The notes: generated from the sequence alone by a model not told the origin. A stretch of 32,000 bases of DNA from Fibrobacter succinogenes subsp. succinogenes S85 (GCF_000146505.1 NC_017448.1:90001-122000), one strand, 5' to 3'; counted from the stretch's first letter, positions 1,840 through 31,090 are shown. A program made the numbers and translations.

Positions 1840-2769
1840 TTAGCAGAAGAAATCTTTCCAGATTTGATTGCCGAGTTCATTTAGGCGAATCTGGACTTTT
1901 TCAATTTGTTCGTGAAGCCCCTGGTCGATGATTTCTTCGATGGTCGTGAACGCGATGTCGGAACGCAGCTTGCCCAGGAGGCGGATGGATTCTGCCTTGC
2001 TTTTGACAGGGTAGGCGATGTTCTTGAGACACTGTTCCGCTTTTTCCAAGCAGTAACGCAAGGAGCGCGGAAAATCTTCGGAGAGCAGGAGAAATTCCGC
2101 GACGTTATGCGGTGTCACGTTTGAATTGCGACGGTGGAACATTTCGTATGCACCGACGCTCTTGAGAACGGCGTTCCACTGCACGGTATCGAGCGCCATG
2201 CCCACCATGCTCACATCCGGAAGCAAGATGTAATACTTGACGTCCAGAATACGCGAAGTCTGGTCGGCGCGTTCGAGCAATGTGCCGAGATGCGTGAAGT
2301 TCCAGGCGACATCGTGGTTCATCGTGCCTTGAATGATGCCTGCCGTGAGCTGGCTGAATTCCTTGACGCTATTGTAAAAAGCGTGTGGACCAGCCAATGC
2401 TTCTTTAGGCATTTCGGGGTCGTTTAGTTTCAAGTAAAACTGGTTGATGGCAATCCACAGTTCCGAAGAAATTCTTTCGCGGACGCAGCGGGCGTTTTCA
2501 CGGGCGGCCCCGACGCACGAAATGATGCTGTTCGGATTTTCCTTGTCAAACGTCAGGAACATGAGCGCGTTTTCAATGGAAACATGCGCGTATTTTTTGA
2601 AGAAGTCATCGGCATTGCCGGCAATTTGAATCACCGGTTCCCAAGGGCGTTCTTCGCCGGGCAAGTCCAGTTGCAGCTGGAGGTTCACATCGATGCTTCG
2701 CGCGACGTTTTCGGCGCGTTCGATATAGCGGGCGAGCCAATAAATGGAATTTGCGACTCTGCTTAACAT
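1840..2769 (-). CDS. Alpha-E domain protein (COG2307/DUF403 family)
   Basis: 309 aa. The N-terminus MLSRVANSIYWLARYIERAENVARSIDVNL is the typical alpha-E family opening. It lies 24 nt downstream of its ATP-grasp partner, with an AGGAAG RBS. Confidence 0.88.
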   Translation of the reverse strand: MLSRVANSIYWLARYIERAENVARSIDVNLQLQLDLPGEERPWEPVIQIAGNADDFFKKYAHVSIENALMFLTFDKENPNSIISCVGAARENARCVRERISSELWIAINQFYLKLNDPEMPKEALAGPHAFYNSVKEFSQLTAGIIQGTMNHDVAWNFTHLGTLLERADQTSRILDVKYYILLPDVSMVGMALDTVQWNAVLKSVGAYEMFHRRNSNVTPHNVAEFLLLSEDFPRSLRYCLEKAEQCLKNIAYPVKSKAESIRLLGKLRSDIAFTTIEEIIDQGLHEQIEKVQIRLNELGNQIWKDFFC

Positions 2770-2793
2770 ATTACACTTCCTACTTCTAAATTC

Positions 2794-4287
2794 CTATTGT
2801 TGTTGCTGTTGTTGTTCCATCCAAAGTTTAGCTTGTCCGAGTTCTGGAGCCTTTTCGTTTTCGGCAATGACCCATGTGTCCTTGCATCCGCCGCCCTGCG
2901 AGCTGTTCACCACGATAGAACCTTTGCGGAGTGCTACGCGAGTGAGGCCACCGGGGAGAATGTAAGTCTCTCGCCCTTGCACAATGTAGGGGCGCAAATC
3001 CACATGGCGACCTTCGAAACCGCCATCGACAAAGCAAGGCACGCGGCTGAGCGAAATCATGGGCTGCGCAATGTAGTTACGCGGGTTCGCGATAATCTTG
3101 CTCTTGAACGCCTCACATTCCTCCTTTGTCGATTTTGGACCGACGAGCATGCCGTAGCCACCGGATTCGCTGGCGGCCTTAACGACCATATTTTCGATGT
3201 GGTCCAACACATGCTGCATGTGCTTTGGGTTCTCGCATACAAATGTCGGCACATTCGGGATGATCGCCTCTTCGCCGAGATAGTACTTGATAATCTGCGG
3301 CACATAGGTGTAAATCGCCTTGTCGTCGGCAACACCGCAACCGGGCGCATTCGCAAGCGCTACGTTACCAGCCTTGTAGGCTTCAATCAGTCCAGGCACG
3401 CCGAGGCAAGAATCCGGGCGGAATACCTTCGGATCCAAGAATTCGTCATCGACACGGCGGTAAATCACGTGAACCTGCTTGAGGCCGCGCGTCGTGCGGG
3501 CATAGACCTTCTTGTCTTGCACAACAAGGTCGTCTCCGGTCACGAGGTCCACGCCCATCTGCTGTGCCAAATAGGAATGTTCGTAGTACGCCGAATTGTA
3601 GATGCCGGGTGTCAGCACCACGACCTTCGGCGATGCTGTAGAATCGGCCAAGTATTCCAACGCATGGCGCAGACGGGTGCAGTATTCGTCTACGGGTCGA
3701 ATGGAACAGTTGGAAAATACCTGCGGGAACGTACGCTTTAGAATCTGACGGTTCTGCAACACGTACGAGACACCACTCGGGCATCGCATGTTGTCTTCAA
3801 GTACGTAGAATGTGCCGTCGGTATCGCGCACAAGGTCTGTGCCTGTAATGTGCGCCCAGATTCCCTTGGGCGGCACAAAGCCTTCCATCTGCGCTCTGTA
3901 AGCGGTGCAGGTGTTGATGAGGCTTTCGGGGACGACCTTGTCACGCAAAATCTTGCGGTCGTTGTAGATGTCCGTCAAAAAGCAGTTCAGCGCTTCTGTA
4001 CGCTGTTTGAGGCCCGCTTCGAGGTGCTTCCAGTCGGCGGCGCTTACAATACGCGGGATAACGTCAAAGGGGATTATTTTGTCCTTACCGTCCTTGTTGC
4101 CGTAAACCGCGAATGTAATTCCGTTATCGTAAAACGCAGATTCCGCAATGATCTGGCGGCGTTGCAGTTCTCCTTCGGGGAGCTCGTTGATTTTCGTAAA
4201 CAACGGCTCTGCAGCCGGGCGGGGAGTCCCATCCGGTAAGCAAAGCTCATCGTAAAAGCCTTCGGTGTCGTAATTTCCAAATCGCAT
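2794..4287 (-). CDS. Circularly permuted type-2 ATP-grasp protein (COG2308, DUF404/DUF407 family) with C-terminal hexa-glutamine
   Basis: ORF 2794..4323. Family-typical N-terminus MRFGNYDTEGFYDEL is preceded by an AAGGAA RBS (ATG 4287). An alternative ATG at 4323 overlaps the upstream stop as ATGA. The protein ends ...AKLWMEQQQQQQ*. Confidence 0.85.
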   Translation of the reverse strand: MRFGNYDTEGFYDELCLPDGTPRPAAEPLFTKINELPEGELQRRQIIAESAFYDNGITFAVYGNKDGKDKIIPFDVIPRIVSAADWKHLEAGLKQRTEALNCFLTDIYNDRKILRDKVVPESLINTCTAYRAQMEGFVPPKGIWAHITGTDLVRDTDGTFYVLEDNMRCPSGVSYVLQNRQILKRTFPQVFSNCSIRPVDEYCTRLRHALEYLADSTASPKVVVLTPGIYNSAYYEHSYLAQQMGVDLVTGDDLVVQDKKVYARTTRGLKQVHVIYRRVDDEFLDPKVFRPDSCLGVPGLIEAYKAGNVALANAPGCGVADDKAIYTYVPQIIKYYLGEEAIIPNVPTFVCENPKHMQHVLDHIENMVVKAASESGGYGMLVGPKSTKEECEAFKSKIIANPRNYIAQPMISLSRVPCFVDGGFEGRHVDLRPYIVQGRETYILPGGLTRVALRKGSIVVNSSQGGGCKDTWVIAENEKAPELGQAKLWMEQQQQQQ

Positions 4288-4319
4288 GTTTTGTTTCCTT
4301 ATGCTTTTAGGTTTTCTTC

Positions 4320-5201
4320 TCATTCATCCCTAAGGTCCACGTTTACGGACACTTTCAAGGTATGCTCGCCACCTCCGGTGATGACGCCCTTTAACGGGCT
4401 CACGTCCCCGAAGTCTCTACCCCAGGCGAGTATAATGTGCTCGTTACCTCCAAGCACATTGTTGGTGGGGTCCAGTTCTACCCAGCCGTGGCCGGGAATG
4501 TAGGTGCTGACCCAGGCGTGGGTCGCGTCGGCTCCGACGAGTTTGGGTTGCCCTTCGCATGGATGCGTGCGGAGGTAACCGCTCACGTAACGGCAAGGCA
4601 AATGCAGTGAACGCAAGCAGCCTATCATCAAGTGTGCAAAGTCCTGGCAGACGCCTTTTCGTCCGCGCAAGATTTCTTGCGGCTGCGCCCCGATTCTCGT
4701 CGCTCCCGGCGTGTACTTGCAATCCGTGTAGATTCGCGTCATGAGCTCGTAGGCGGCGTCAAAAATGGGGCGGCCCTGCTCAAAGCTTTCGAGCGCGTAA
4801 TTGCGGACCGATTCGTCAAACTTGGCGAAAGGGGAGGCGTAGGCGTACATCGCGGCGTCTAGTGTTTCGTCGCTTGTCGGGCGTTCCAAAAGCTTTGCGA
4901 CATCTTCCCATTTCATCGTTTCACCTTGTTTTGGCGGTTCTTCTCCTTGAACGTCTACAATGCCGGTCGTTTTGAATCTAAAGTGTGTGTGTTCCTGCTC
5001 GATGCTGAATGCCAACACCTTGTTCCCGAAAATGTCGATGCGTTCTTGCCGAATTGTTGGATTCGGTTCCACTTCAATGCTGTGGCTAATCCAATTCTGT
5101 CGGCTGACAGTTCGCGGGAGCATGTGGGCGAGGTGGTTGCTGTAAAGAACGGGGAGGCGGTAGTCGTAGACGGTCTCATGGTCAACTTGATAAATGGGCA
5201 T
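4320..5201 (-). CDS. Transglutaminase-fold family protein (N-terminal Bact_transglu_N-like region plus transglutaminase core)
   Basis: Cys-His-Asp triad context is intact: GVCQDFAHL, ATHAWVS, ELDPTN. The start is at MPIYQVDHETVYDY (ATG 5201), with a GGAGG RBS 6 nt upstream and 1 nt after the upstream TAA. Confidence 0.88.
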   Translation of the reverse strand: MPIYQVDHETVYDYRLPVLYSNHLAHMLPRTVSRQNWISHSIEVEPNPTIRQERIDIFGNKVLAFSIEQEHTHFRFKTTGIVDVQGEEPPKQGETMKWEDVAKLLERPTSDETLDAAMYAYASPFAKFDESVRNYALESFEQGRPIFDAAYELMTRIYTDCKYTPGATRIGAQPQEILRGRKGVCQDFAHLMIGCLRSLHLPCRYVSGYLRTHPCEGQPKLVGADATHAWVSTYIPGHGWVELDPTNNVLGGNEHIILAWGRDFGDVSPLKGVITGGGEHTLKVSVNVDLRDE

Positions 5202-5202
5202 C

Positions 5203-7605
5203 TTAAACCTCCGACACATCCGTGGTTGTCGCGTGGAAAACTCCAGCGCGTGGCGCATGGCTTAAGTAGAGCCTGTTTACGATTTCTGCAATCCGTTCAA
5301 TAGAATTTATCTGTGTTTTTACAAGTTTTATGAGGTTCTCCCTTTTGTTATCTACAGTTTCTGCAAGCTGTTCAATGTTTGCGAGGCGCAGTTCTGCAAG
5401 CACGCGCATCAGTTCACGGTCGAGCGGCGAGAATGTCGCTTCGCTTTGGTCGTTCCCGGGCAAGTGCTTTGCTGCTTTCCGCAATTTTGCCACCTGGTAG
5501 GCGACGCTTCGCGGGTTGGATTCGTCTGACAAAAGCAAGTCGATGACGGGGACTACTTGCAAACGGCCTCCATAGCGGCGGTGGTATGTCATGAGCCCGT
5601 CGCCGATTTCAAGAACCGCTTGCAACAAGCGCAAGTTCGTCATCTCGTCAGTGGGGGCGGTGTATAGCAGACTTTTGACCAGTTGCAGGGTGCGGATGGC
5701 GCACTCGATTTCACGACCGAGTTCCAAAAAGCGCCATTCGTGGCCTCGCGTCATGGAATCGGCTGCAAGCCCGGCCACTGCAGCGCTGTCCGATAGGACC
5801 TCCTTTAGGTAGGGCAACAGCGCTGCCGCACCTGTTCCTGCCGGCACTTCTGCAATGCCAAATCCGTTCAAGTAAAGCCATAAATCCTCCGAAATGCGGT
5901 CGCGCAACTGCATGCCGAGCTCTCGAATTTCCGTCAGCACGCATTGTATGCCGTTCTTGTTGTCCTTGCGCAAGATAAAGTAACGGAGTGCGTTTTCTGG
6001 ATCTTGCGCGAGTCTGGACTGCGTTTCATCAGTAAGCCCTGCCTTCAGAATCCATGGCAGTTCCGGCATGTCCATCCAGGATTCGTCCGAGAGCCTCACC
6101 GCGATACCTCTTGCAATACGGGCCATCATGTTCGATGATGACAATGCTCGCCCCAGCCGGAACAGGTTCTCGGCCGCACGGCTAGGCAAATCGCCTCCAG
6201 CTCTCGACGGCGTAATCGCCTGACTTGCTGGAGCGAGCAAAGAAAAGTTCGCCACAGGATTTTCCGAAAGCACCCAAATGTCTTTTTCTCCAAGTCCTTT
6301 GTCTAAAATCCCAAGGCCGCCCGGCATCACCGAAGTCCCGTTCGCAGTATTCACCGCAAAGAATCTCATCAGCGAAACTGCCGGAGTGAACTCTCCTCGG
6401 TACGCGTAAACCACTGAAACTTCCATCGATCTTTCGGCCACCCATTGCTCGGGCGCATTCTCAACCGCTTGCAACAACGCAAGCTGTGCCGTCGTCGTCA
6501 TGGTCGCATAAGTCTTGGGTTCTGCCTCCTTGAAGCTTCCTTCGTCGCGGAATGCCTTCTTGAAAATCCATTTTTCGGGCTCTGCCAAAACGCGTTCCGC
6601 ATCAGTTGCATTCCCGAGCCAAAGTGTTTCCACATCGCGCAACAGCAGTTCTTCACCCAAAAGCTCGCGGCAAATCTCCGGCAAAAACGGCTTGAACACG
6701 GGCGTCTCTAGAACGCCAGTCCCGAGAAAGTTCGCAATCGCCACGTTCCCGGCGCGGACAGAACTGATTAAGCCCACGGCCCCTTCGCCGCTGTCAATTC
6801 GCAGTTCCAGCGGGTCGCACATGCCGTCTTCCACTCGGCGGAATATGGTCCCAATCTTCTTGAGTCCCATAAGCGTCTTCATGTACACTTGCATGTTGCG
6901 AATCGCGAGGTCATCGTTTTCGACAAGTGGGATCCCGAGGTAACGGGCGATTACTGCGTCTTCTGCTCGACGCGGATTGTCCGGACTCGATGCCAAAAGT
7001 ACCACCTTGCTGGTTTCACCTTCACCTCCTATGTTCTTGTGCATGGCGTCTAGGCCATCCATCAGCTTCTTGAAAAATCCTGCCAATCGTTCCGTTTGCA
7101 TGCTGCGGAAAAGCTCCGGGAATGCACGGCTTACGCCAATGCGGTTCTCCAGTGCACGCCCTAATCCATCGGGTACTTGCAAATGGTCCGATACCGCCAC
7201 GAAAGTTCCGTCTTTGAGCCTTACGACATCGGTGGATGTCAAGTTCACAAAGACATCGCCAACCGGGTGCACTTTCCATACAACCTGCAAAAAATCCGGG
7301 TTTGCAAACAATAGCGCGGCGGGCAACTTGCCTTTTTTCCAAAGACTTTGTTCGCCATAAATGTCTTTCGCGAGCGCGTTAAAAAGCTTTGCCCTTTGCG
7401 CAACGCCCGCTTCCAGCGTTTTCCATTCTTCGGCCGTAATCACGAGAGGGATGGGGTCTGTACCCTTGTGGTTGCCTCCCATGCTCGACGAAAGATCGTT
7501 CTCATCGAGAACGTTATGCAAACGCCTGCAGCGGTGCTCGAATTCCACTTTCGACAATGCCGAAATGGACCGGATAAAAGTATCTTCTGTCTCTACACAT
7601 TCCAT
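5203..7605 (-). CDS. Fused circularly permuted ATP-grasp plus alpha-E domain protein (800 aa)
   Basis: The N-terminal half resembles the stand-alone ATP-grasp (PIPLVITAEEWKTLEAGVAQRAKLFNALAKDIYG versus IPRIVSAADWKHLEAGLKQRTEALNCFLTDIY). The C-terminal ~320 aa starts with the alpha-E-like PSRAAENLFRLGRALSSSNMMARIARG. Confidence 0.85.
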   Translation of the reverse strand: MECVETEDTFIRSISALSKVEFEHRCRRLHNVLDENDLSSSMGGNHKGTDPIPLVITAEEWKTLEAGVAQRAKLFNALAKDIYGEQSLWKKGKLPAALLFANPDFLQVVWKVHPVGDVFVNLTSTDVVRLKDGTFVAVSDHLQVPDGLGRALENRIGVSRAFPELFRSMQTERLAGFFKKLMDGLDAMHKNIGGEGETSKVVLLASSPDNPRRAEDAVIARYLGIPLVENDDLAIRNMQVYMKTLMGLKKIGTIFRRVEDGMCDPLELRIDSGEGAVGLISSVRAGNVAIANFLGTGVLETPVFKPFLPEICRELLGEELLLRDVETLWLGNATDAERVLAEPEKWIFKKAFRDEGSFKEAEPKTYATMTTTAQLALLQAVENAPEQWVAERSMEVSVVYAYRGEFTPAVSLMRFFAVNTANGTSVMPGGLGILDKGLGEKDIWVLSENPVANFSLLAPASQAITPSRAGGDLPSRAAENLFRLGRALSSSNMMARIARGIAVRLSDESWMDMPELPWILKAGLTDETQSRLAQDPENALRYFILRKDNKNGIQCVLTEIRELGMQLRDRISEDLWLYLNGFGIAEVPAGTGAAALLPYLKEVLSDSAAVAGLAADSMTRGHEWRFLELGREIECAIRTLQLVKSLLYTAPTDEMTNLRLLQAVLEIGDGLMTYHRRYGGRLQVVPVIDLLLSDESNPRSVAYQVAKLRKAAKHLPGNDQSEATFSPLDRELMRVLAELRLANIEQLAETVDNKRENLIKLVKTQINSIERIAEIVNRLYLSHAPRAGVFHATTTDVSEV

Positions 7606-9952: not shown

Positions 9953-11746
9953 TTATTTCTTATCAGCACCCTTAGGCATCTGCACGGAGATGTGGATGTC
10001 CTGCAACTGCTGGAGGTCCACTTCACTCGGGCACTGGTCCATCGGGCTAGAAGCACTCGTGTTCTTCGGGAAAGCGATGTAGTCACGGATAGATTCTTCA
10101 CCTTCCATGGTAGCAACAACGCGGTCGAGACCGAAGGCGAGACCACCGTGCGGAGGAGCACCGTACTTGAATGCATCGACGAAGAAGCCGAACTTGGTCT
10201 TCACCTGTTCTTCGGAGAGACCGAGCAAGCGGAACACCTTTTCCTGAACTTCCGGGTTGTGAATACGGATAGAACCACCGCCGATTTCCACACCGTTAAG
10301 AACAAGGTCATAAGCTTCGGCGTTGCAATCCTTGAGGTTGCCACCGAGCATCATGTCCAAATGTTCCGGAAGCGGGTTCGTGAACGGGTGGTGCATAGCC
10401 ATGTAGCGGCCTTCCGTGTCGCTGTATTCGAACATCGGGAATTCGGTAATCCAAACAAATTCACGCTTCTTCGGATCGCGGAGGCCCTTGATACGGGCGA
10501 CTTCCAAGCGAAGCTGACCCATAGCCGTAGCTGCAATCTTTTCCGGACCGGCGATGAAGAACATCATGTCGCCGCACTTAGCGCCAACAGCGTCGCGGAG
10601 TTCGTTAAGTTGTTCGGTTGTGAAGAACTTGCCAACCTGAGTTTCAACTTCGTCATTTTCCTTGACGCGCATCCACACGAGGCCCTTGGAACCGTACTTG
10701 GCAACGTAAGCCGTGAGTTCGTCGATCTGCTTACGAGTAAAGTCAACGCAACCCTTAGCAGCGATACCGCGAATCTTGCCACCAGCGGCAACGCAGTTCT
10801 TGAACACGCCAAAGTTGGACTTTGCACCGATTTCAGACACATCGTGAATTTCGAGGTCGAAGCGGAGGTCCGGCTTGTCGGAACCGTACTTGAGCATAGC
10901 TTCTGCCCACTTCATACGGCGGATGTGACGCGGCGGTTCGAAGTTCCAAACCTTGCCCAAAACTTCAGTCACGAACTTGTCGAACATTTCCATCACTTCG
11001 TCTTGGTTGACGAAGGACATTTCAACGTCAATCTGCGTGAATTCCGGCTGACGGTCAGCGCGGAGGTCTTCGTCGCGGAAACACTTGGCGATCTGGAAGT
11101 AGCGGTCCATGCCAGCAATCATCAAAAGCTGCTTGTACTGCTGCGGAGACTGCGGGAGGGCATAGAACTTGCCCGGGTTCACGCGGGACGGCACGAGGTA
11201 GTCACGTGCGCCTTCCGGAGTGGACTTGCAAAGGCACGGAGTTTCAATGTTTTCAAAACCGTTAGAATAGAAGAAGTCGTACACGGCCTTGAGGAAGCGG
11301 CTCTTGAGGAGGAGCTTTTTCTGGATCCACGGACGGCGGAGGTCCAAATAGCGGTACTGCAAGCGGAGGTCGTCGTTTTCCTTGCATTCTTCGTTCGGGT
11401 CGTTAATGGCCAAGGGAGAAGTGAGGGCGGCGTTCAGGATTTCGAGCTTGTCTGCCTTGACTTCGATTTCACCCGTGGCGAGCTTTTCATTCGTGTTGCC
11501 TTCTTCGCGGGCGTAGACCTTACCAGTCACGTAAATAACGTATTCGTTACGGAGCTGTTCGGCAGTTTTCAAAACATCGGCATTGTAATCCGGATTGAAA
11601 ACGATCTGGGTCTTGCCATACTTGTCGCGGAGGTCAACGAAAATCACACCACCATGGTCACGGCGGCGATCCACCCAACCGGCGAGTGTTACGGTCTGGC
11701 CAACATCTTCCTTGCGAAGCTGGCCGCAGTTATGTGTACGTTTCAT
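9953..11746 (-). CDS. aspS: Aspartate--tRNA ligase
   Basis: Class II aaRS motifs are present: FRDEDLRADRQPEFTQIDVEMSF, GGGSIRIH, GLAFGLDRVV. The start is at MKRTHNCGQLR (ATG 11746); the longer track ORF adds a non-conserved 26-aa extension. Confidence 0.95.
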   Translation of the reverse strand: MKRTHNCGQLRKEDVGQTVTLAGWVDRRRDHGGVIFVDLRDKYGKTQIVFNPDYNADVLKTAEQLRNEYVIYVTGKVYAREEGNTNEKLATGEIEVKADKLEILNAALTSPLAINDPNEECKENDDLRLQYRYLDLRRPWIQKKLLLKSRFLKAVYDFFYSNGFENIETPCLCKSTPEGARDYLVPSRVNPGKFYALPQSPQQYKQLLMIAGMDRYFQIAKCFRDEDLRADRQPEFTQIDVEMSFVNQDEVMEMFDKFVTEVLGKVWNFEPPRHIRRMKWAEAMLKYGSDKPDLRFDLEIHDVSEIGAKSNFGVFKNCVAAGGKIRGIAAKGCVDFTRKQIDELTAYVAKYGSKGLVWMRVKENDEVETQVGKFFTTEQLNELRDAVGAKCGDMMFFIAGPEKIAATAMGQLRLEVARIKGLRDPKKREFVWITEFPMFEYSDTEGRYMAMHHPFTNPLPEHLDMMLGGNLKDCNAEAYDLVLNGVEIGGGSIRIHNPEVQEKVFRLLGLSEEQVKTKFGFFVDAFKYGAPPHGGLAFGLDRVVATMEGEESIRDYIAFPKNTSASSPMDQCPSEVDLQQLQDIHISVQMPKGADKK

Positions 11747-11897
11747 GGTTGTATCCTTGAAGATTATTTTTCGGCGGGAAATATAGCATTTTTTATAGGA
11801 ATGGGGGAGGAAAGCCCCCCGCAACGCCCCCGAAAGTCCTATTGAAAAAGAACTATCAAATAATATATTGGATATTGAATAACGTTTGAGTTTTGCT

Positions 11898-12482
11898 TTA
11901 CATGAACTTCGCTACGATCCTATATTCAACACCGTGTCTGCGATACGCACCTCGCATGTAGTATACGACAGTAGGTCTCGTTGTTCCGTCTGAGAGTTTG
12001 GCTGTTCCGTAATACGTGTTGCCGTTGTGTCTGTCGATGTCTACTCCTGTGCATTTTATTAGTGCATAGTTTAACAAGTTTCCGTTAAGACTAGCTATGG
12101 CTTCGTCTTCTATCCAGCCGTATTTATCTGTTGTGTACCCCGAAATGAGTGCTGCCAGAATTCCGGCGCAGAGTAAGATTACGCCTGTAATGCGCAGTTT
12201 TCCCTTATTGGGTTTATCTTCAGTTCCTTTGAAAAAATTGGAACATTGCATATATAATAGGGTCATGGCGGATAATACGATTATGCCGGAAATGTATGCG
12301 TCCACAACTTTAATCAAATTGAAATCGATGTATATGTGGTTCCATACGGGCCTAATAAAAATGGCAATTACGACGATGTAGATGACGGATAAAAAGAGAG
12401 GTCCTGCTGGGTTCTTATTGAACTTTTCACAGCATTCCTTGGCCTCTTGAATCTTTTCTGCTTCGCTTTTTTCTTTGCGCAT
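11898..12482 (-). CDS. Hypothetical membrane protein (about 3 TM helices plus C-terminal soluble domain)
   Basis: 194-aa ORF with an AAAGGAA RBS. Hydrophobic segments include LFLSVIYIVVIAIFI, ISGIIVLSAMTLLYM and ITGVILLCAGILAALI. It is AT-richer than its neighbours. No recognised family. Confidence 0.6.
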   Translation of the reverse strand: MRKEKSEAEKIQEAKECCEKFNKNPAGPLFLSVIYIVVIAIFIRPVWNHIYIDFNLIKVVDAYISGIIVLSAMTLLYMQCSNFFKGTEDKPNKGKLRITGVILLCAGILAALISGYTTDKYGWIEDEAIASLNGNLLNYALIKCTGVDIDRHNGNTYYGTAKLSDGTTRPTVVYYMRGAYRRHGVEYRIVAKFM

Positions 12483-12518
12483 GTAAATTCCTTTTGGAGT
12501 ATATAAAATACGATTTTA

Positions 12519-12564
12519 TTTCCAATTTTGTAAAGCGTTTTCCATTTCTTGGAACGGTTTTCCA
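12519..12564. promoter_or_regulatory. Three TTTCCA (TGGAAA) direct repeats at exact 20-bp spacing in a divergent intergenic region
   Basis: TTTCCA occurs at 12519-12524, 12539-12544 and 12559-12564, with contexts ttaTTTCCAatt, cgtTTTCCAttt and ggtTTTCCAcct. Confidence 0.35.
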
Positions 12565-12735
12565 CCTTTTGTCGCTCCTTTTGGTCTTTTTATCCTCCAA
12601 TTGTGCAAGTAAACAATATTTTCGCAATTTTTTGTCGATTTTCTTGTCTTTTTCCAAATTTTCCTAGTATATTCTTTTCTGTGTTTAATAAAAATGCCCT
12701 TGAAAGGGGTGTTTTGGTTCAATTTGGAGATTTAA

Positions 12736-13338
12736 ATGGCAGAAGATTTGCAAGCCCTTATGGAACGCATCCAGAAGGATGCTGTCGAAAAGGCAGAACT
12801 CGCAGCAGCAGATATTATTTCTAAGGCAAAGGACAAGGCGGCCGAAATTGTCAGGGCTGCCGAAGACGAAGCCAAAGCAAAACTCGAAAACGCCGATAAG
12901 GAAGCACAAGCATTTACAGAACGCAGCGAACGCACTTTGGAACAGTCCGCTCGCGATTTGCTCCTCTCGGTGGGCAAGAACCTCGAAAAGATGATTCTTG
13001 ATCTTCTCAGCCTCCAGATTGACAAGTCTCTCGATGAATCAACCGTGAAGAACATGCTCCTCACGGTTGCAAAGAGCTACACCTCCGACATCGAAATCAA
13101 CTTCTCCGAAGCCGATGCCAAGGCCCTCACGAGCTTTGTGATGGGCGAGTTTGCAAAGCAGCTCAAGGCTGGCGTCAAGGTCGAAAGCGACAAGGGCGTC
13201 AAGTTTGGTTTCCGCGTCAAGCTCGATGGCGGCAAGGTCAGCCACGAATTTACAGAACAGGCAATGGCGGAATCTCTTTCTGCCTTGCTCAGACCGCAAC
13301 TTGCAAAGATTGTAAACAAGGCCGCCCAGGGCAAATAA
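12736..13338 (+). CDS. atpE: V-type ATP synthase subunit E
   Basis: 200 aa. Charged coiled-coil N-terminus (MAEDLQALMERIQKDAVEKAELAAADIISKAKDKAAEIVRAAEDEAKAK). First gene of the V-ATPase operon. GGAG RBS. Confidence 0.85.
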   Translation: MAEDLQALMERIQKDAVEKAELAAADIISKAKDKAAEIVRAAEDEAKAKLENADKEAQAFTERSERTLEQSARDLLLSVGKNLEKMILDLLSLQIDKSLDESTVKNMLLTVAKSYTSDIEINFSEADAKALTSFVMGEFAKQLKAGVKVESDKGVKFGFRVKLDGGKVSHEFTEQAMAESLSALLRPQLAKIVNKAAQGK

Positions 13339-19554: not shown

Positions 19555-20010
19555 ATGGAACCGAATACAATGGTGACTCTCGCTAAAATGGGTGCTGCAG
19601 CTGCGCTTGGCATTGCGGCTATGGGCTCTGCCCTTGGTTGCGGAACGGCCGGTATGTCTGCTATCACGATGTGGAAGAAGGCTTACGCTCAGGGTAAGTC
19701 CGCTCTCTTCACGCTTCTCGTGTTCGTCGGTGCTCCGATTTCCCAGACGATTTACGGCATGTTGCTCATGAACTTCATCTTGAGCAAGGCTGCTGAACAG
19801 GGCTTTACGAATTGGGGCGGCTGCCTCGGTGCTGGTATCTTCGGTGGCCTCGGCATGATGGCTTCTGCTTGGTACCAGGGCAAGTCTGCTGCAGTGGCTT
19901 GCGATGCTCTCGGTGAAACCGGCAAGGGCATGGTGAACTACTTGATGGTTCTCGGTATCGTCGAAACCGTCGCTTTGTTCGTGCTCGTGTTCTCCATGAT
20001 GGTGCTTTAA
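19555..20010 (+). CDS. atpK: V-type ATP synthase subunit K (proteolipid), copy 1
   Basis: 151 aa, 4-TM double-hairpin proteolipid. Key residues: GAPISQTIYG, WYQGKS, and the TM4 carboxylate in IVETVAL. GAGGA RBS. Confidence 0.9.
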   Translation: MEPNTMVTLAKMGAAAALGIAAMGSALGCGTAGMSAITMWKKAYAQGKSALFTLLVFVGAPISQTIYGMLLMNFILSKAAEQGFTNWGGCLGAGIFGGLGMMASAWYQGKSAAVACDALGETGKGMVNYLMVLGIVETVALFVLVFSMMVL

Positions 20011-20028
20011 TCGAAAGAGGTAGCACTT

Positions 20029-20484
20029 ATGGATCAATCACAACTTTTAACGCTCGCAAAGCTCGGTGCGGTGGCGGCTCTTGGCCTTGCCGCAGTGGGC
20101 TCTGCGCTGGGCTGCGGGACTGCCGGCATGGCGGCCATCGGTGCCTGGAAAAAGGCGTATCTCAAGGGTAAGAACGCGCTCTTTACGCTGCTCATCTTCG
20201 TGGGTGCGCCGATTGCGCAGACGATTTACGGCATGCTCCTGATGATGTACATCTTGAACAAGTCTCAAGCTGCTCCGGGCAACTGGGCTGCTTACCTTGG
20301 TGTAGGCATCTTCGGTGGCATTGGCATGATGGCTAGCGCTTGGTATGTGGGCAAGTCCGCTGCTGACGCTTGCAACGCTCTTGGCGAAACGGGCAAGGGC
20401 CTCGTGAACTACTTGATGGTGCTCGGTGTTGGCGAAACGGTCGCACTGTTCGTCATGGTGTTCTCGATGATGCTTGTTTCGTAG
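20029..20484 (+). CDS. atpK: V-type ATP synthase subunit K (proteolipid), copy 2
   Basis: 151 aa, paralogue of copy 1. Key residues: GAPIAQTIYG, WYVGKS, and the TM4 carboxylate in VGETVAL. AAGAGG RBS. Confidence 0.9.
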   Translation: MDQSQLLTLAKLGAVAALGLAAVGSALGCGTAGMAAIGAWKKAYLKGKNALFTLLIFVGAPIAQTIYGMLLMMYILNKSQAAPGNWAAYLGVGIFGGIGMMASAWYVGKSAADACNALGETGKGLVNYLMVLGVGETVALFVMVFSMMLVS

Positions 20485-26593: not shown

Positions 26594-26618
26594 GTCGCAC
26601 AATTTAGAAATTTTATCG

Positions 26619-27722
26619 TCAAAAGTCGAGGGTCTCTTTATACCACTTGGGAATTTTGCCGTTTTTTTCTAGTGCGGAATCATAGAACATTTCGTACATG
26701 CATTCCACTTTTGAAACGTTCCAATTACAGATATTTCCAGTGAAATGAGATCCAGAAAACATTTCAGACATATCCTTGACATTGGATACATCCCATTTGC
26801 TAATATCTCCGTTAAATGGAGAATCTCTGAACAATTCGTGCATCATCGTGACATTGGACGTATTGATAAAGTTTAAGTCGCAATTTGGACCGTGTAACCA
26901 CATTGCTGCATCAATGAGATTTAGCAAGTGTTCGCGATTCAATGCGATAACGTTTCCATCGAAATCGGTTGCGTTTTCGAGCATGAGCGGATAAATTTTG
27001 TTGAGCCAATTTTTTGCTTTCCCCGTTTTTTCGAATTGGGAATCTTGGAACATTCCGTGAAGGTCTAGCAAACGTTCTGTTTCCCACTTGCTGATGTCTC
27101 CTTTGAATTCTGAACATTCGAACATGCCGTTCATATCTTTCTCATGGGAAACGTCCCAGTTACTGATGTCGCCATTGAACTTGGATCCAGCGAACATGCT
27201 GTTCATGTTTTTGACTTTGGATACGTTCCATTTGCTGATATCGCCATTGAAAGGGCTATTGCAGAACATGGAATACATGTATTCGACATTGGACACATTC
27301 CACTTGCTTATATCGCCATTGAATTGCGATTCAGCGAACATGGAATGCATGTCTTTGACATTGGAAACGTTCCAGTTACTAATGTCTCCGTTGAACAGGG
27401 ATTCGATAAACATGGAATGCATATCTTGGACATTTGATACATTCCACTTGCTTATATCGCCATTGAATACGGATTCAAAGAACATGCCGTCCATGCGTTT
27501 GACATTGGATACATCCCATTTGCTGATGTCGCCGTTGAATTTATGAAACTCATTGTTGAAAAAGCTAAATCTACTGAACAATCCTGACATATCCGTTATG
27601 TTGGATACGTCAATAAAGTTCAAATCGCAATTGGGACCATCTTTTTCGATGGCTTCTTTGATTAGTTGTTCTAGGTGATCGCGGTCGCGGGCGATGATTG
27701 AGGTGTGGGGGGATGAGAGCAT
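26619..27722 (-). CDS. DUF285/BspA-type leucine-rich-repeat protein (367 aa), no signal peptide, two repeat modules
   Basis: About 10 repeats of the 24-aa unit FNGDISKWNVSNVxxMxxMFxxSx. Two cap modules are present: RDHLEQLIKEAIEKDGPNCDLNFIDVSN and REHLLNLIDAAMWLHGPNCDLNFINTSN. The N-terminus MLSSPHTSIIARDRD has no hydrophobic signal. Confidence 0.85.
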   Translation of the reverse strand: MLSSPHTSIIARDRDHLEQLIKEAIEKDGPNCDLNFIDVSNITDMSGLFSRFSFFNNEFHKFNGDISKWDVSNVKRMDGMFFESVFNGDISKWNVSNVQDMHSMFIESLFNGDISNWNVSNVKDMHSMFAESQFNGDISKWNVSNVEYMYSMFCNSPFNGDISKWNVSKVKNMNSMFAGSKFNGDISNWDVSHEKDMNGMFECSEFKGDISKWETERLLDLHGMFQDSQFEKTGKAKNWLNKIYPLMLENATDFDGNVIALNREHLLNLIDAAMWLHGPNCDLNFINTSNVTMMHELFRDSPFNGDISKWDVSNVKDMSEMFSGSHFTGNICNWNVSKVECMYEMFYDSALEKNGKIPKWYKETLDF

Positions 27723-27725
27723 GGG

Positions 27726-28370
27726 TTATATTTCAAGCAGATAATACCAAAAATTTTCGTTTGCCTTATTCCATTTGATATTGTAAGATCCTTCAATTTT
27801 TACAAATGGTGGTTCAGTTGATTTTTTTGAATTTATTGGATTATTGATTTTTCCATGGATCGGCTGTTGTGCAAAAAATTGGTCGCTGTTATTATAAGAA
27901 TTCTCTGATGATCGGAAAAGAGAATAAATCGGTTTTAGTTCGTCATTGGTATTTTTTTTGCCAATCACCATAAATGATCCGCCTTTTCTGTCTGTATTTA
28001 TTAGAGCTAGACAAAAAGTCTTGGTGAAAGAAAGATTCTTTTTTACAGATTCCATAAACTGAATATCTGCTAAAAATTGAAACATTCGTTTTGGGTATGC
28101 TCCATTTGTAGGATATTTTAACTCAATAGCGTATTTTTCATTATCTTTGCCGATTACGTAAAGATCCATTTCTTTTTTTATGAAATCTTTAGAATATTCT
28201 TTGCCGAATTCGGCCATAACGTTCTTTTCAAAATAAACATTGAATCCGTTGTTCCTTAAGAATATTCCAAGCTCAAACTGCAACGAAAATTCGTTGTAGA
28301 TATACTCGGTGTTTAAATTTTTTTTGAGAAAGTCTTCAATACATTGTTTGATATTATTTTCTTCATTCAT
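27726..28370 (-). CDS. Hypothetical protein with a PD-(D/E)xK nuclease-like motif pattern (214 aa), very AT-rich
   Basis: The ORF sits 3 nt upstream of the next gene and 34 nt after the previous one. The pattern is E27/E33 (NEFSLQFELG), D69 (KKEMDLYVIG), then E83-x-K85 (YAIELKYP). Hand counts of two 60-nt samples give 27% and 32% G+C. Confidence 0.6.
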   Translation of the reverse strand: MNEENNIKQCIEDFLKKNLNTEYIYNEFSLQFELGIFLRNNGFNVYFEKNVMAEFGKEYSKDFIKKEMDLYVIGKDNEKYAIELKYPTNGAYPKRMFQFLADIQFMESVKKNLSFTKTFCLALINTDRKGGSFMVIGKKNTNDELKPIYSLFRSSENSYNNSDQFFAQQPIHGKINNPINSKKSTEPPFVKIEGSYNIKWNKANENFWYYLLEI

Positions 28371-28404
28371 TTTTATTTTCTTTGCTTGTTATTCAATGTG
28401 GTGT

Positions 28405-30348
28405 TTACTTCATGCCCAACAGTTTTTTCCACTTAGCAATTGCTTCTTGGGTGAGTGTTTTGTTCTTGGATTTCTTTTCAAAATCGCTTGCAGGAACAGG
28501 ATAATAGACATCACCGTTTTTATCTGGTTCGCTATGGTCAAAGTCGAGGATGCTTTTGATTTTCTGTCCTTTTTTATCCAAAAGGTAAAGTTCTTTTTTG
28601 CTGTCTTTGGATGTGCAACGAAGGTTGTCACTAAAATCTTTGCAACTGCGACCTGCGGAATCGTAGTTGCCTTCCAAATAATAAGGAATTTTGAAAATAA
28701 CGAGTCCTTTTTCTGTGCTTTTGTTTGGTTCAAGCAATTTTTTGACGGGCAACGCGAAAATTTTTTGCTGGCTATCGCCATGGACTACAACTTGGAATTT
28801 TTTGATTTCGCAGTTGTTGCCATATTCGTCCATGTGCTTTACAAATTCACTAGATTGAGGATTCCAATCTTGGTCGTAATCTTCTAAGAATTTTGCTCTA
28901 GTTTCGTTAAAGTCTATGCAATACCAGAAATTTCCGCCTTTTGCATTGCCGTTGCCGACACCCCAAGATTCGAGTTCTGTAAATTCTGTGCCTTCCCAGT
29001 GGATGTTGAATTCAAGACCCTTTTCTGCCATATCTTTATAGACTTCGATTGGCGGTGTTTTAGCTGTTTTGAATGTTGTTTTTCCACTTAAAATTTTGTT
29101 TAATGCAGCACCTTTTTTGCCAAAAATTTCAGGAATGTTTTTTTCATTATAGATGCTGTTGAATTTTTTGATTTGAGCATCGCTCATGGTGATTGTATTC
29201 AACATAAACAAGTTTTCGGGCTTTTTTGTGGATGGCTTTTTTTGTGATGCATTCTTGCTTTTAGAGACCCCTTTGGGAAGGTTATCGCTTTTTTCAAGCA
29301 AAGAATCACTGAAAATGACCTTCTTGTTTTTTACTTTTGAAACATCCCACTTGCTGATGTCACCGTTGAATTGAGAACGTGCGAACATGTAGTCCATGTC
29401 GGTCACGTTAGACACGTTCCAGTTGCTGATGTCGCCGTTGAATATAGATTCAGCAAACATTCCTTGCATGTTTGTGACTTTTGATACGTCCCAGTTGCTG
29501 ATGTCGCCGTTGAATTGAGATCGTCCGAACATGAAACTCATGTTGGTCACGTTAGACACGTCCCAGTTGCTGATGTTGCCGTTGAATTGAGATCGTCCGA
29601 ACATGAAATTCTTGCCGGCTTCGAACATGAAACTCATGTCGGTCACGTTAGACACGTTCCAGTTGCTGATGTCGCCGTTGAATTGAGAACATTCGAACAT
29701 GTAGCTCATGTTGGTCACGTTAGACACGTTCCAGTTGCTGATGTCGCCGTTGAATTGAGAACCTGCGAACATTTGGCTCATGTTGGTCACGTTAGACACG
29801 TTCCAGTTGCTGATGTCGCCGTTGAATTGAGAACATTCGAACATGTAGCTCATGTTGGTCACGTTAGACACGTTCCAGTTGCTGATGTCGCCGTTGAATT
29901 GAGAACATTCGAACATGTAGCTCATGTTGGTCACGTTAGACACGTCCCATTTGCTGATATCGCCATTGAAAGGGCTATTGCAGAACATGGAATACATGTA
30001 TTCGACATTGGACACATTCCATTTGCTGATATCGCCGTTGAATTGAGAATATCCGAACATGTTGCTCATGTTGGTCACGTTAGACACGTCCCACTTGCTG
30101 ATATCACCATTGAATGAGGATCCGTCGAACATGTAGCTCATGTCGGTCACGTTAGACACGTCCCATTGGCTGATGTCTCCGTTGAATTTGCTTAATGCAA
30201 ACATTCGGCTCATGTTTTGGACTTTAGAAACATCGATGAAATTAAGGTCGCATTTTACACCATTCTTTTTTATGGCGGCTTTAATCAACTTTTCAAGATG
30301 CTCTTTGTCCTTCGCGACGACTTTTTCTTCGGTCTTTTTTGTAGCCAT
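28405..30348 (-). CDS. DUF285/BspA-type leucine-rich-repeat protein (647 aa) with an unrecognised ~300-aa C-terminal domain, no signal peptide
   Basis: The N-terminal cap KDKEHLEKLIKAAIKKNGVKCDLNFIDVS is followed by 12 repeats of FNGDISNWNVSNVTNMSYMFECSQ type. A Lys/Ser-rich linker then leads to a non-repetitive C-terminal domain. Confidence 0.85.
   Translation of the reverse strand: MATKKTEEKVVAKDKEHLEKLIKAAIKKNGVKCDLNFIDVSKVQNMSRMFALSKFNGDISQWDVSNVTDMSYMFDGSSFNGDISKWDVSNVTNMSNMFGYSQFNGDISKWNVSNVEYMYSMFCNSPFNGDISKWDVSNVTNMSYMFECSQFNGDISNWNVSNVTNMSYMFECSQFNGDISNWNVSNVTNMSQMFAGSQFNGDISNWNVSNVTNMSYMFECSQFNGDISNWNVSNVTDMSFMFEAGKNFMFGRSQFNGNISNWDVSNVTNMSFMFGRSQFNGDISNWDVSKVTNMQGMFAESIFNGDISNWNVSNVTDMDYMFARSQFNGDISKWDVSKVKNKKVIFSDSLLEKSDNLPKGVSKSKNASQKKPSTKKPENLFMLNTITMSDAQIKKFNSIYNEKNIPEIFGKKGAALNKILSGKTTFKTAKTPPIEVYKDMAEKGLEFNIHWEGTEFTELESWGVGNGNAKGGNFWYCIDFNETRAKFLEDYDQDWNPQSSEFVKHMDEYGNNCEIKKFQVVVHGDSQQKIFALPVKKLLEPNKSTEKGLVIFKIPYYLEGNYDSAGRSCKDFSDNLRCTSKDSKKELYLLDKKGQKIKSILDFDHSEPDKNGDVYYPVPASDFEKKSKNKTLTQEAIAKWKKLLGMK
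29311..30252. repeat. In-frame 72-bp tandem repeat array (13 units including the cap) with several near-identical units
   Basis: Units beginning gaacat fall at 29695, 29767, 29839 and 29911, exactly 72 bp apart. The units at 29839 and 29911 are identical across 72 bp. The unit at 29695 differs only at its 3' end. Confidence 0.9.
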
Positions 30349-30515
30349 TGTTTAATTCTTTATTTTACCTAATGGAATATATCCTTTTTTCGTAAGAATA
30401 TTATAGAATTTTGACGCACCTCGTTTTATTATCGTTCGTGAAGTGGTCTTTTGTCGAGATATTTTTGGAAATATTTTAATATAATTGCTAAGAGGAATGC
30501 TTTCTATAAACATTG

Positions 30516-30542
30516 TTGACAGAGGTATATTGTTTTTATAGA
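30516..30542 (+). promoter_or_regulatory. Candidate sigma-70-type promoter for the nitroreductase gene
   Basis: Consensus -35 TTGACA (30516-30521) is followed after 15-17 nt by TATAGA/TAGATA. An AAAGGAAAGGAG RBS precedes the ATG at 30569. Confidence 0.35.
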
Positions 30543-30568
30543 TATACAGAAAAAGGAAAGGAGTACAT

Positions 30569-31090
30569 ATGTCATTTATTGATTTGGCTAGAAATCGTTT
30601 CAGTTGCCGTGCTTTTAGCGAACAGGAAGTTGAACCCGAAAAACTGATGCAGGTGCTCGAAGCGGGCCGTATCGCTCCGACGGCGGTAAACGGTCAACCG
30701 GTGTTTATCAAGGTTCTCCATTCTCCCGAAGCGCTCAAGAAGATTCGTGGCATCACGCGCATGGCGTATAACGCTCCTGTGGTGCTGATGGTCTGCTACG
30801 ACGACAACAAGGTCTACACTCCGACGACCTACATGGACAATTTCAAAAGTGGCATTATGGATTCGAGCATTATTGCAACTTCAATGATGATGCAGGCGAC
30901 CGACCTCGGACTTGCAACGCTCTGGGCACGCGGTTTCAATGCTGCTCACATTGAACATGAATTCGGTTTCGAGCCGAACATCAAGCTTGCTTGCCTTTTG
31001 GACATTGGCTATGCCGACCCGCAGAACGGAGTGCCGTCTCCTCGTCACGACGTGCGTAAGCCGATGAATGAATTTGCCGAAAAGCTTTAA
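30569..31090 (+). CDS. Nitroreductase family protein
   Basis: 173 aa. Family-typical N-terminus: DLARNRFSCRAFSEQEVEPEKLMQVLEAGRIAPTAVNGQP. Strong RBS. Confidence 0.88.
   Translation: MSFIDLARNRFSCRAFSEQEVEPEKLMQVLEAGRIAPTAVNGQPVFIKVLHSPEALKKIRGITRMAYNAPVVLMVCYDDNKVYTPTTYMDNFKSGIMDSSIIATSMMMQATDLGLATLWARGFNAAHIEHEFGFEPNIKLACLLDIGYADPQNGVPSPRHDVRKPMNEFAEKL

Follow-up and report, generated by a model that had tools for sequence, protein, structure and literature searches.

Organization and composition of the three-gene cluster

The window analyzed here is a 32,000-nucleotide stretch of the genome of Fibrobacter succinogenes subsp. succinogenes S85 (NC_017448.1, positions 90001–122000), and the element of interest is a cluster of three minus-strand genes, denoted A, B and C, that occupies window positions 26594–30568. 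Gene A (28405–30348) encodes a 647-residue protein with DUF285/PARCEL repeats and a C-terminal domain (CTD), gene B (FSU_0106; 27726–28370) encodes a 214-residue PD-(D/E)XK nuclease-like protein, and gene C (26619–27722) encodes a 367-residue protein with two DUF285 modules. A preliminary description of the locus proposed the three genes as a candidate sensor–effector system. The sizes and strand that it gave, and the tight spacing with gaps of 34 and 3 nucleotides, were reproduced by calling open reading frames (ORFs), each of which already begins at the earliest start codon that follows the upstream stop. The cluster is flanked by a plus-strand nitroreductase gene on the A side (30569–31090) and by metG on the other, the latter annotated as a 690-residue protein in the genome record used for the locus (CP001792.1). 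This position between the two genes is as first described; that the cluster was inserted there is unproven, as no empty nitroreductase–metG site was found.

The low G+C content was borne out. The cluster has 38.9% G+C compared with 50.9% in the rest of the window. Gene B is the most AT-rich (29.9% G+C; 30% at third codon positions, GC3), the outer genes A and C have 41.0% and 40.7%, respectively, and metG has 56.1% (GC3 74%). Because the cluster is compositionally foreign and the locus is variable among relatives, the proposal of horizontal acquisition was upheld. No marks of insertion (long inverted repeats or flanking direct repeats) were found at the cluster. Consistent with the preliminary description, the genome record shows no Pfam domain of an integrase or a transposase within 8 kb of the locus, and a tRNA scan found no tRNA gene in the window.

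The spacer upstream of A is only 27% G+C and contains a promoter-like site on the minus strand (30428–30457; TCGACA and GATAAT separated by 18 nucleotides, 10 of 12 positions in a consensus scan), which is a pattern match only. A terminator scan found no hairpin in either intergenic gap or in the 25-nucleotide spacer that separates the stop codon of C from the ATG of metG (26594–26618, minus strand); the sole minus-strand match falls within gene C. The islet is probably transcribed as a unit from a promoter upstream of A, and the transcript may continue into metG. As a side observation, the start codon of the essential metG lies so close to C that there is neither a terminator-like hairpin nor obvious promoter space between them, and metG may be transcribed through the islet or from inside it. 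The corresponding gap in a relative, locus L013, is 142 nucleotides.

Gene B encodes a PD-(D/E)XK nuclease-like protein

The product of gene B is 100% identical to FSU_0106. Alignment of 36 homologues, down to 38% sequence identity, revealed nine invariant residues: E27, Q31, E33, E48, K65, E67, D69, E83 and K85. Four of these, E27, D69, E83 and K85, form the E...D...ExK pattern noted in the preliminary description, and they are also invariant in seven Fibrobacter homologues. An AlphaFold2 model computed from the 36-homologue alignment has a predicted local distance difference test score (pLDDT) of 87.9 and a predicted template modeling score of 0.87. The modeled core comprises a helix (residues 27–40), three β-strands (44–50, 67–73 and 79–85), a second helix (93–113) and a fourth strand (117–125), that is, the α-β-β-β-α-β order of the PD-(D/E)XK core. 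E27 is located on helix 1, D69 in strand 2, and the E83-x-K85 motif in strand 3. A separate C-terminal β-sheet domain is formed by residues ~160–214. The model thus agrees with the nuclease-like assignment made earlier, and the residues selected then as critical (D69, E83 and K85) are among the invariant ones.

Comparisons with characterized proteins yielded weak matches. Foldseek searches of the PDB with the B model gave no match at E < 1e-3, the best being BstEII (E = 0.029); PD-(D/E)XK nucleases are nonetheless prominent in the list, which includes BstEII, RecU, NucS, Cas4 SSO0001, EcoRV, HincII and the bunyavirus cap-snatching endonucleases. No Pfam, NCBIfam or PADLOC model matched B, and PHROG matches were at noise level (E about 0.4). 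A search of PDB sequences with the B profile returned nothing significant; the best entry was 1y88 (E = 0.35), which we take to be a PD-(D/E)XK-fold protein. Members of the B family have sub-threshold Pfam matches to DUF234 (6 members), MTES_1575, PDDEXK_9 and DUF4143, all of them presumably families of the PD-(D/E)XK clan. Alignment of the B family with neighboring NucS-like DUF4268 proteins using hhalign superposes the D...ExK motifs at a probability of 0.06%, without statistical support. B is accepted here as PD-(D/E)XK nuclease-like on account of the invariant motif and the modeled core topology, not of a significant match to a named family, and the strict conservation of its catalytic-type residues across phyla argues for an enzyme.

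Distribution and neighbors of the B family

Searched exhaustively with a profile, the B family yields 1186 sequence clusters (at 50% identity) at E ≤ 1e-3, of which 361 are retained at E ≤ 1e-30. A scan of one genome per species located 234 B-family loci. The hosts include Fibrobacter, Treponema, many Bacillota, Bacteroidales, Acidobacteriota, Chloroflexota, Proteobacteria and methanogens. B homologues occur in 10 IMG/VR contigs, with none in GenBank phages and none in PLSDB plasmids. Some members carry additional segments, namely a Cys-rich N-terminal segment of ~100 residues, a DUF7662 domain, or a C-terminal extension of ~120 residues (proteins P0142, P0247, P0137 and P0172); the Cys-rich segment is possibly a zinc-ribbon/winged-helix domain.

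The neighbors were analyzed at 75 loci where the B gene could be placed, using a longest-ORF caller. Clustering of the ±4 neighbors revealed no common partner family; each family occurs in at most a handful of loci. Immediate (±1) neighbors include DUF2779, DUF4268 (the PADLOC candidate PDC-S11), GmrSD_N, WYL, NUDIX and SNF2/DrmD-like helicases, and other recurring neighbors are DUF262/GmrSD-like proteins, WYL/WCX regulators and an RlmD-like housekeeping methyltransferase. Large serine recombinases are encoded within four genes of the B homologue in 10 loci, and a tyrosine integrase lies near it in L002–4. The defense-island setting proposed earlier therefore holds for the family, which is often found among defense and mobile-element genes.

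The possibility that B is the restriction half of a type II restriction–modification pair was considered and rejected, as there is no neighboring DNA methyltransferase: none is present in the cluster or within 8 kb of B, and no DNA-methyltransferase family is among the 25 Pfam families most frequent at ±1 of the 75 B homologues. Methyltransferase matches at ±1 include a tRNA U5-methyltransferase model and general methyltransferase domains, which most likely correspond to the RlmD-like gene cluster. Two candidate partners encoded upstream of B homologues, of 412 residues in L001 and 337 residues in L017, were also discarded, since they show no similarity to the CTD of A. Overall, B-family genes look solitary and at home in variable, defense-rich or mobile regions.

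The outer genes encode untargeted DUF285/PARCEL repeat proteins

Both outer proteins match DUF285 (PF03382) strongly, with E = 5.7e-112 for A and 2.2e-107 for C, and the PARCEL repeat model TIGR02167 matches 11 stretches in A and 6 in C. The original label of DUF285/BspA proteins is correct in its first half only: the BspA-type LRR_5 family (PF13306) is absent from the Pfam matches of A and C at E ≤ 1, and "BspA family" is a mere annotation label on relatives. Protein A consists of an N-terminal cap, 12 repeats of 24 residues each that start between residues 55 and 327, a disordered Lys/Ser-rich linker and the CTD; the repeat region, residues 1–345, is encoded at 29314–30348 on the minus strand. 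Protein C comprises a cap and seven repeats (starts at residues 62–206), then a second cap and two to three repeats (starts at residues 303–327), with no other domain.

At the DNA level, Tandem Repeats Finder identified arrays with a 72-nucleotide period in A (29345–30188; 70–85% matches between units) and in C (27084–27540). Each 72-nucleotide unit contains a short palindrome: AACATG-N5-CATGTT, with at most one mismatch allowed, occurs 15 times against 0.06 expected, and all occurrences are confined to the repeat regions of A and C. PARCELs owe their name to this palindromic character. Two plus-strand ORFs lie antisense to the repeats, at 27088–27546 (152 residues) and 29515–30117 (200 residues), and have a repeat pattern of their own; they look like a by-product of dyad-symmetric repeat DNA rather than genes.

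Neither A nor C contains a signal peptide, lipobox or membrane segment in a hydrophobicity scan. On the Kyte–Doolittle scale, the N-terminal peak over 10 residues is 0.76 and 0.78, and the highest 19-residue value anywhere is 0.36 and 0.89, in the two proteins. The absence of a signal peptide noted in the preliminary description is thus correct. It is not a new feature: Roske et al. 2010 (PMC2996958) already list a category (H) of PARCEL ORFs without membrane-targeting sequences. According to that paper, PARCELs show dyad symmetry, spread horizontally and are associated with mobile elements, and untargeted PARCEL ORFs are possibly pseudogenes, cytoplasmic products or annotation artefacts, for which a reservoir role is also raised.

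These properties bear on the view that nothing is unusual about A and C: they would be PARCEL/BspA-like proteins that reach the surface or are secreted by a non-classical route, or else silent reservoirs of repeat variants, with B an unrelated passenger that is possibly not a nuclease at all. Most characterized DUF285/PARCEL proteins are surface lipoproteins, the reservoir role has been suggested in the paper just cited, and A and C have strong matches to PHROG families of unknown function, so that the DUF285/PARCEL repeat is also common in phages. However, the two proteins lack every export or anchoring signal that was sought, ORFs of the A and C types are long and intact in several relatives, and the cross-phylum conservation of the B residues is difficult to reconcile with a non-enzymatic passenger. 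We consider this explanation improbable.

The C-terminal domain of A

The folded CTD spans residues ~382–647 of A (28408–29205, minus strand). The AlphaFold2 model of a fragment that begins at residue 347 has a mean pLDDT of 84.6, and its first 29 residues (A 347–375) are disordered. The family is rare: a single-sequence query found 14 relatives, and a profile search found 36. The preliminary description listed the domain as unknown, and this stands with respect to structure, as Foldseek found no usable fold match in the PDB or in BFVD and the CTD profile gave nothing significant against PDB sequences. With respect to family there are indications of a relationship: PF18406 (DUF1281_C), the "ferredoxin-like domain in Api92-like protein", scores above the Pfam cut-off in 6 of the 14 relatives (best E = 7.8e-07), though not in the CTD of A itself, and a weak BFVD match is to a phage "YubB ferredoxin-like" protein (probability 0.66, E = 0.06). 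The CTD thus appears to belong to a rare family related to the DUF1281_C/YubB/Api92-like proteins. No function for DUF1281, Api92 or YubB was found in the literature.

The CTD occurs in diverse contexts. It is fused to DUF285 repeats in either domain order, and in L116 it is encoded alone, directly after two DUF285 genes. Fusions to BspA-type LRR_5 repeats, to AAA_14 and to triple zinc-ribbon N-termini (725-residue proteins) also occur (P0270–P0279, P0293 and P0131). As a mobile domain, the CTD shows a preference for joining repeat or binding modules, and its fusion to and fission from DUF285 is good evidence that the repeats and the CTD work together.

Neighboring genes provide a different association. 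In L106–108 a CTD homologue, encoded by itself in L106, lies directly downstream of a PDDEXK_4 gene (the PADLOC candidate PDC-S26), in L100 and L112 CTD homologues adjoin DUF2779, and in the window the CTD gene adjoins B. These arrangements, together with the fusion to DUF285 in either order or separation just downstream of it, and the fusions to LRR_5, zinc ribbons and AAA_14, raise the possibility that the functional pair is the YubB/Api92-like CTD and a nuclease, which would be B in the window and PDDEXK_4 or DUF2779 elsewhere. The CTD would then be a regulator, an inhibitor or immunity factor, or a substrate adaptor, and the repeats an exchangeable binding module. However, CTD homologues are also found beside housekeeping genes (L109–111) and radical-SAM genes (L103), B is kept without any CTD in close relatives, the CTD of A lacks the N-terminal "NWGT" segment of its family, and no fold match points to a function. 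The link between CTD and nuclease is only suggestive, and such a pair is an unlikely explanation of the cluster.

Comparison of Fibrobacter loci

In the F. succinogenes group (L013–L016), the genes next to the nitroreductase gene retain the DUF285–B–DUF285 order, and metG borders the opposite end wherever the contig is long enough, L015 excepted; this arrangement is attributed to simple descent. Within it the outer genes change rapidly, as the preliminary description had anticipated for the repeat proteins. B of L013 and L015 shares 91% identity with B of the window, and yet the flanking DUF285 genes have been rebuilt: the upstream gene there consists of three DUF285 modules and lacks the CTD, and the downstream one is a single module with 10 repeats. 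Across the locus, the upstream gene product is 647, 542 or 501 residues long and the downstream product 367 or 327.

B homologues in more distant Fibrobacter species share about 40–43% identity, and there the arrangement differs. In L023 the order is an IetA-like AAA ATPase, a WYL/WCX regulator, B, DUF2779 and, after about 1 kb, an A-like and a C-like gene. The latter two are directly adjacent to one another, the B homologue is 3.3 kb away, and the A-like CTD is 57% identical to that of A. L025 has the order ATPase, WYL, B, DUF2779, DUF285. In L100 and L112, a DUF285 gene and a CTD-plus-DUF285 gene with reversed domain order adjoin DUF2779 with no B homologue, and in L100 McrB and McrC follow. 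DUF285 pairs without B are thus present in L100, L112 and L116. A 206-residue gene of L112, between the CTD–DUF285 gene and DUF2779, was examined as a candidate and is not a B homologue. All the Fibrobacter islands with DUF285(+CTD) and nuclease genes have a lower G+C content than their surroundings.

Several further observations concern these islands. The block of IetA-like double-AAA ATPase (~777 residues), WYL/WCX regulator (337 residues), B homologue and DUF2779 is conserved in L017, L022, L023 and L025 and looks like an uncharacterized defense-type operon; DUF2779 itself is functionally uncharacterized (PMC13621843). Contig CAMNHR010000062.1, which contains L023 and L091, encodes two divergent B-family paralogues ~15 kb apart by coordinate arithmetic. 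A conserved 181-residue Cys-rich protein (CxxC...CxxC) is encoded downstream of DUF2779 in L112 (11042–11587) and after McrBC in L100 (14545–15090), and may be another island component.

The three-gene system of the preliminary description can be evaluated against these loci. In that model, the cytoplasmic repeat proteins A and C would sense an invader component and switch on nuclease B, the three together constituting one defense system. The operon-like packing, the conserved nuclease beside fast-changing repeat proteins, and the lack of export signals in A and C are all in agreement with it. So is the fact that, in several Fibrobacter lineages, DUF285(+CTD) genes are found repeatedly in the vicinity of B homologues, DUF2779, WYL regulators, an IetA-like ATPase and McrBC. 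Outside this genus the association disappears. A DUF285 ORF is found within 8 kb of a B homologue in 2 of 80 genome loci, both from Fibrobacter and neither adjacent; none directly adjoins B at the 75 loci with a called B gene, none is present on the 10 viral contigs with a B homologue, and none occurs in L001–4 or L017–18. DUF285 ORFs near B homologues are therefore confined to Fibrobacter. Even there, DUF285 pairs exist without B, DUF2779 separates the DUF285 genes from B in L023 and L025, and close relatives do without the CTD at the corresponding locus. No ATPase or other signaling domain links the repeats to the nuclease. The suggested check against PADLOC-DB 2.0 returned no known system and no matches for A or B; the only matches, to two Cas2b models, involve one 24-residue repeat stretch of C, where no stretch passes alone, and are unconvincing. 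The DUF285–nuclease–DUF285 triad is not co-conserved outside close relatives, an outcome that the preliminary description had itself named as refuting, and the triad therefore fails by its own standard. We regard a three-gene sensor–effector system as unlikely.

What survives is a weaker link at the level of the genus: in Fibrobacter, DUF285(+CTD) genes and nuclease genes co-localize. One may speculate that the cytoplasmic DUF285 proteins of this genus, often with a YubB/Api92-like domain, form with nearby nucleases (the B family, DUF2779 or both) a new repeat-sensor/nuclease defense module. No literature link between DUF285 and defense was found. We hold such a module to be a long shot; if true, it would be the first intracellular function for DUF285 repeats.

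A probable composite islet with a putative stand-alone nuclease

The interpretation that we favor, with modest confidence, is that of a composite islet in which a stand-alone PD-(D/E)XK-type endonuclease resides between two hypervariable PARCEL/DUF285 co-residents that are not its partners. F. succinogenes S85 would have acquired this accessory islet of about 3.9 kb horizontally. The A-like and C-like genes occur elsewhere as a unit with no B between them and B is more AT-rich than either neighbor, which suggests that B entered an existing pair of DUF285 genes. The functional core of the islet would be B, a predicted DNA endonuclease that is presumably Mg2+-dependent and that probably acts alone as a homo-oligomer, as is usual for the PD-(D/E)XK fold. 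Its role would be a restriction-like or element-associated nuclease activity, and A and C would share the island with B without being obligate partners. Both belong to a known class of solenoid-repeat genes that spreads horizontally and is prone to recombination.

Several points weigh against this interpretation. Within Fibrobacter, at least four different arrangements (the window, L023, L025 and L100/L112) bring together B homologues, DUF2779 and DUF285(+CTD) genes; chance seems an unlikely cause of this recurrence, and a functional link is possible. The three genes are packed as in an operon, with gaps of 34 and 3 nucleotides. B has no significant sequence or structure match to any characterized nuclease. 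Finally, the neighbor counts are approximate because of the simple longest-ORF gene caller.

For the most part, the outcome deflates the original claim, since the three genes are better understood as cargo residing in one island than as a "system". The analysis places FSU_0106 in an unnamed PD-(D/E)XK-like family of considerable size, with ~1,200 clusters (50% identity) from Bacteria and methanogens. This family may reasonably be considered a candidate stand-alone restriction-like nuclease and merits entry in the family databases. The analysis also documents a new architecture, DUF285 repeats combined with a YubB/Api92-like domain, and shows that Fibrobacter genes of this kind tend, across the genus, to lie beside nucleases.

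Other regions of the window

Three other regions drew attention. A second low-G+C patch (~41%) at 11500–13000 contains two ORFs without a Pfam match (11898–12482, minus strand, and 12736–13338, plus strand) and may be another small acquired islet. Two tandem 151-residue ORFs at 19555–20484 appear, by their position relative to metG, to be the two ATP-synt_C (ATP synthase c-subunit family) genes of the genome record. The gene cluster at 1840–7605 encodes an 800-residue protein that combines a circularly permuted ATP-grasp with Alpha-E, and a separate 309-residue Alpha-E protein, with two ORFs between them.

Comparison with known systems

The PD-(D/E)XK superfamily has the restriction endonuclease-like fold and includes RecU, NucS, Cas4, EcoRV and Mrr-type enzymes. 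B shares with it the predicted core fold and the invariant helix-1 acid, strand-2 Asp and strand-3 ExK, and it is small and found in islands beside other defense genes. It differs in having its own C-terminal β-sheet domain, in lacking a significant match to a named family, PDB sequence or fold, and in that no methyltransferase, ATPase or helicase partner adjoins it.

Avs/STAND-type NTPases employ tetratricopeptide or leucine-rich repeat sensors, and a STAND/NTPase switch joins the sensor to the effector, usually within one polypeptide, such that the parts are co-inherited. The cluster resembles these systems in that, within an island that holds other defense genes, a variable solenoid repeat adjoins a protein of nuclease fold. 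In contrast, it encodes no NTPase, and its repeat genes and nuclease are not co-inherited outside one genus.

A likeness to the association of DUF2779 ("solo-Cas4-like plus exonuclease") with WYL proteins is evident in other Fibrobacter species, which place the B homologue in the AAA ATPase–WYL/WCX–B–DUF2779 block and in which DUF285(+CTD) genes also abut DUF2779. None of these additional genes is present in the window.

The closest likeness of A and C is to the PARCEL proteins. They share the 24–25-residue tandem repeat with a short palindrome per coding unit, a repeat number and architecture that vary between relatives, and a patchy, horizontally spread distribution with a location in variable regions, and they fall in the untargeted class already listed in PMC2996958. 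They depart from typical members in lacking a surface-anchoring signal, membrane targeting being typical of PARCEL proteins and not required, and A carries an extra C-terminal YubB/Api92-like domain that is not known to be described in that paper. A further distinction is that, in Fibrobacter, genes of the A and C types recur beside nuclease genes.

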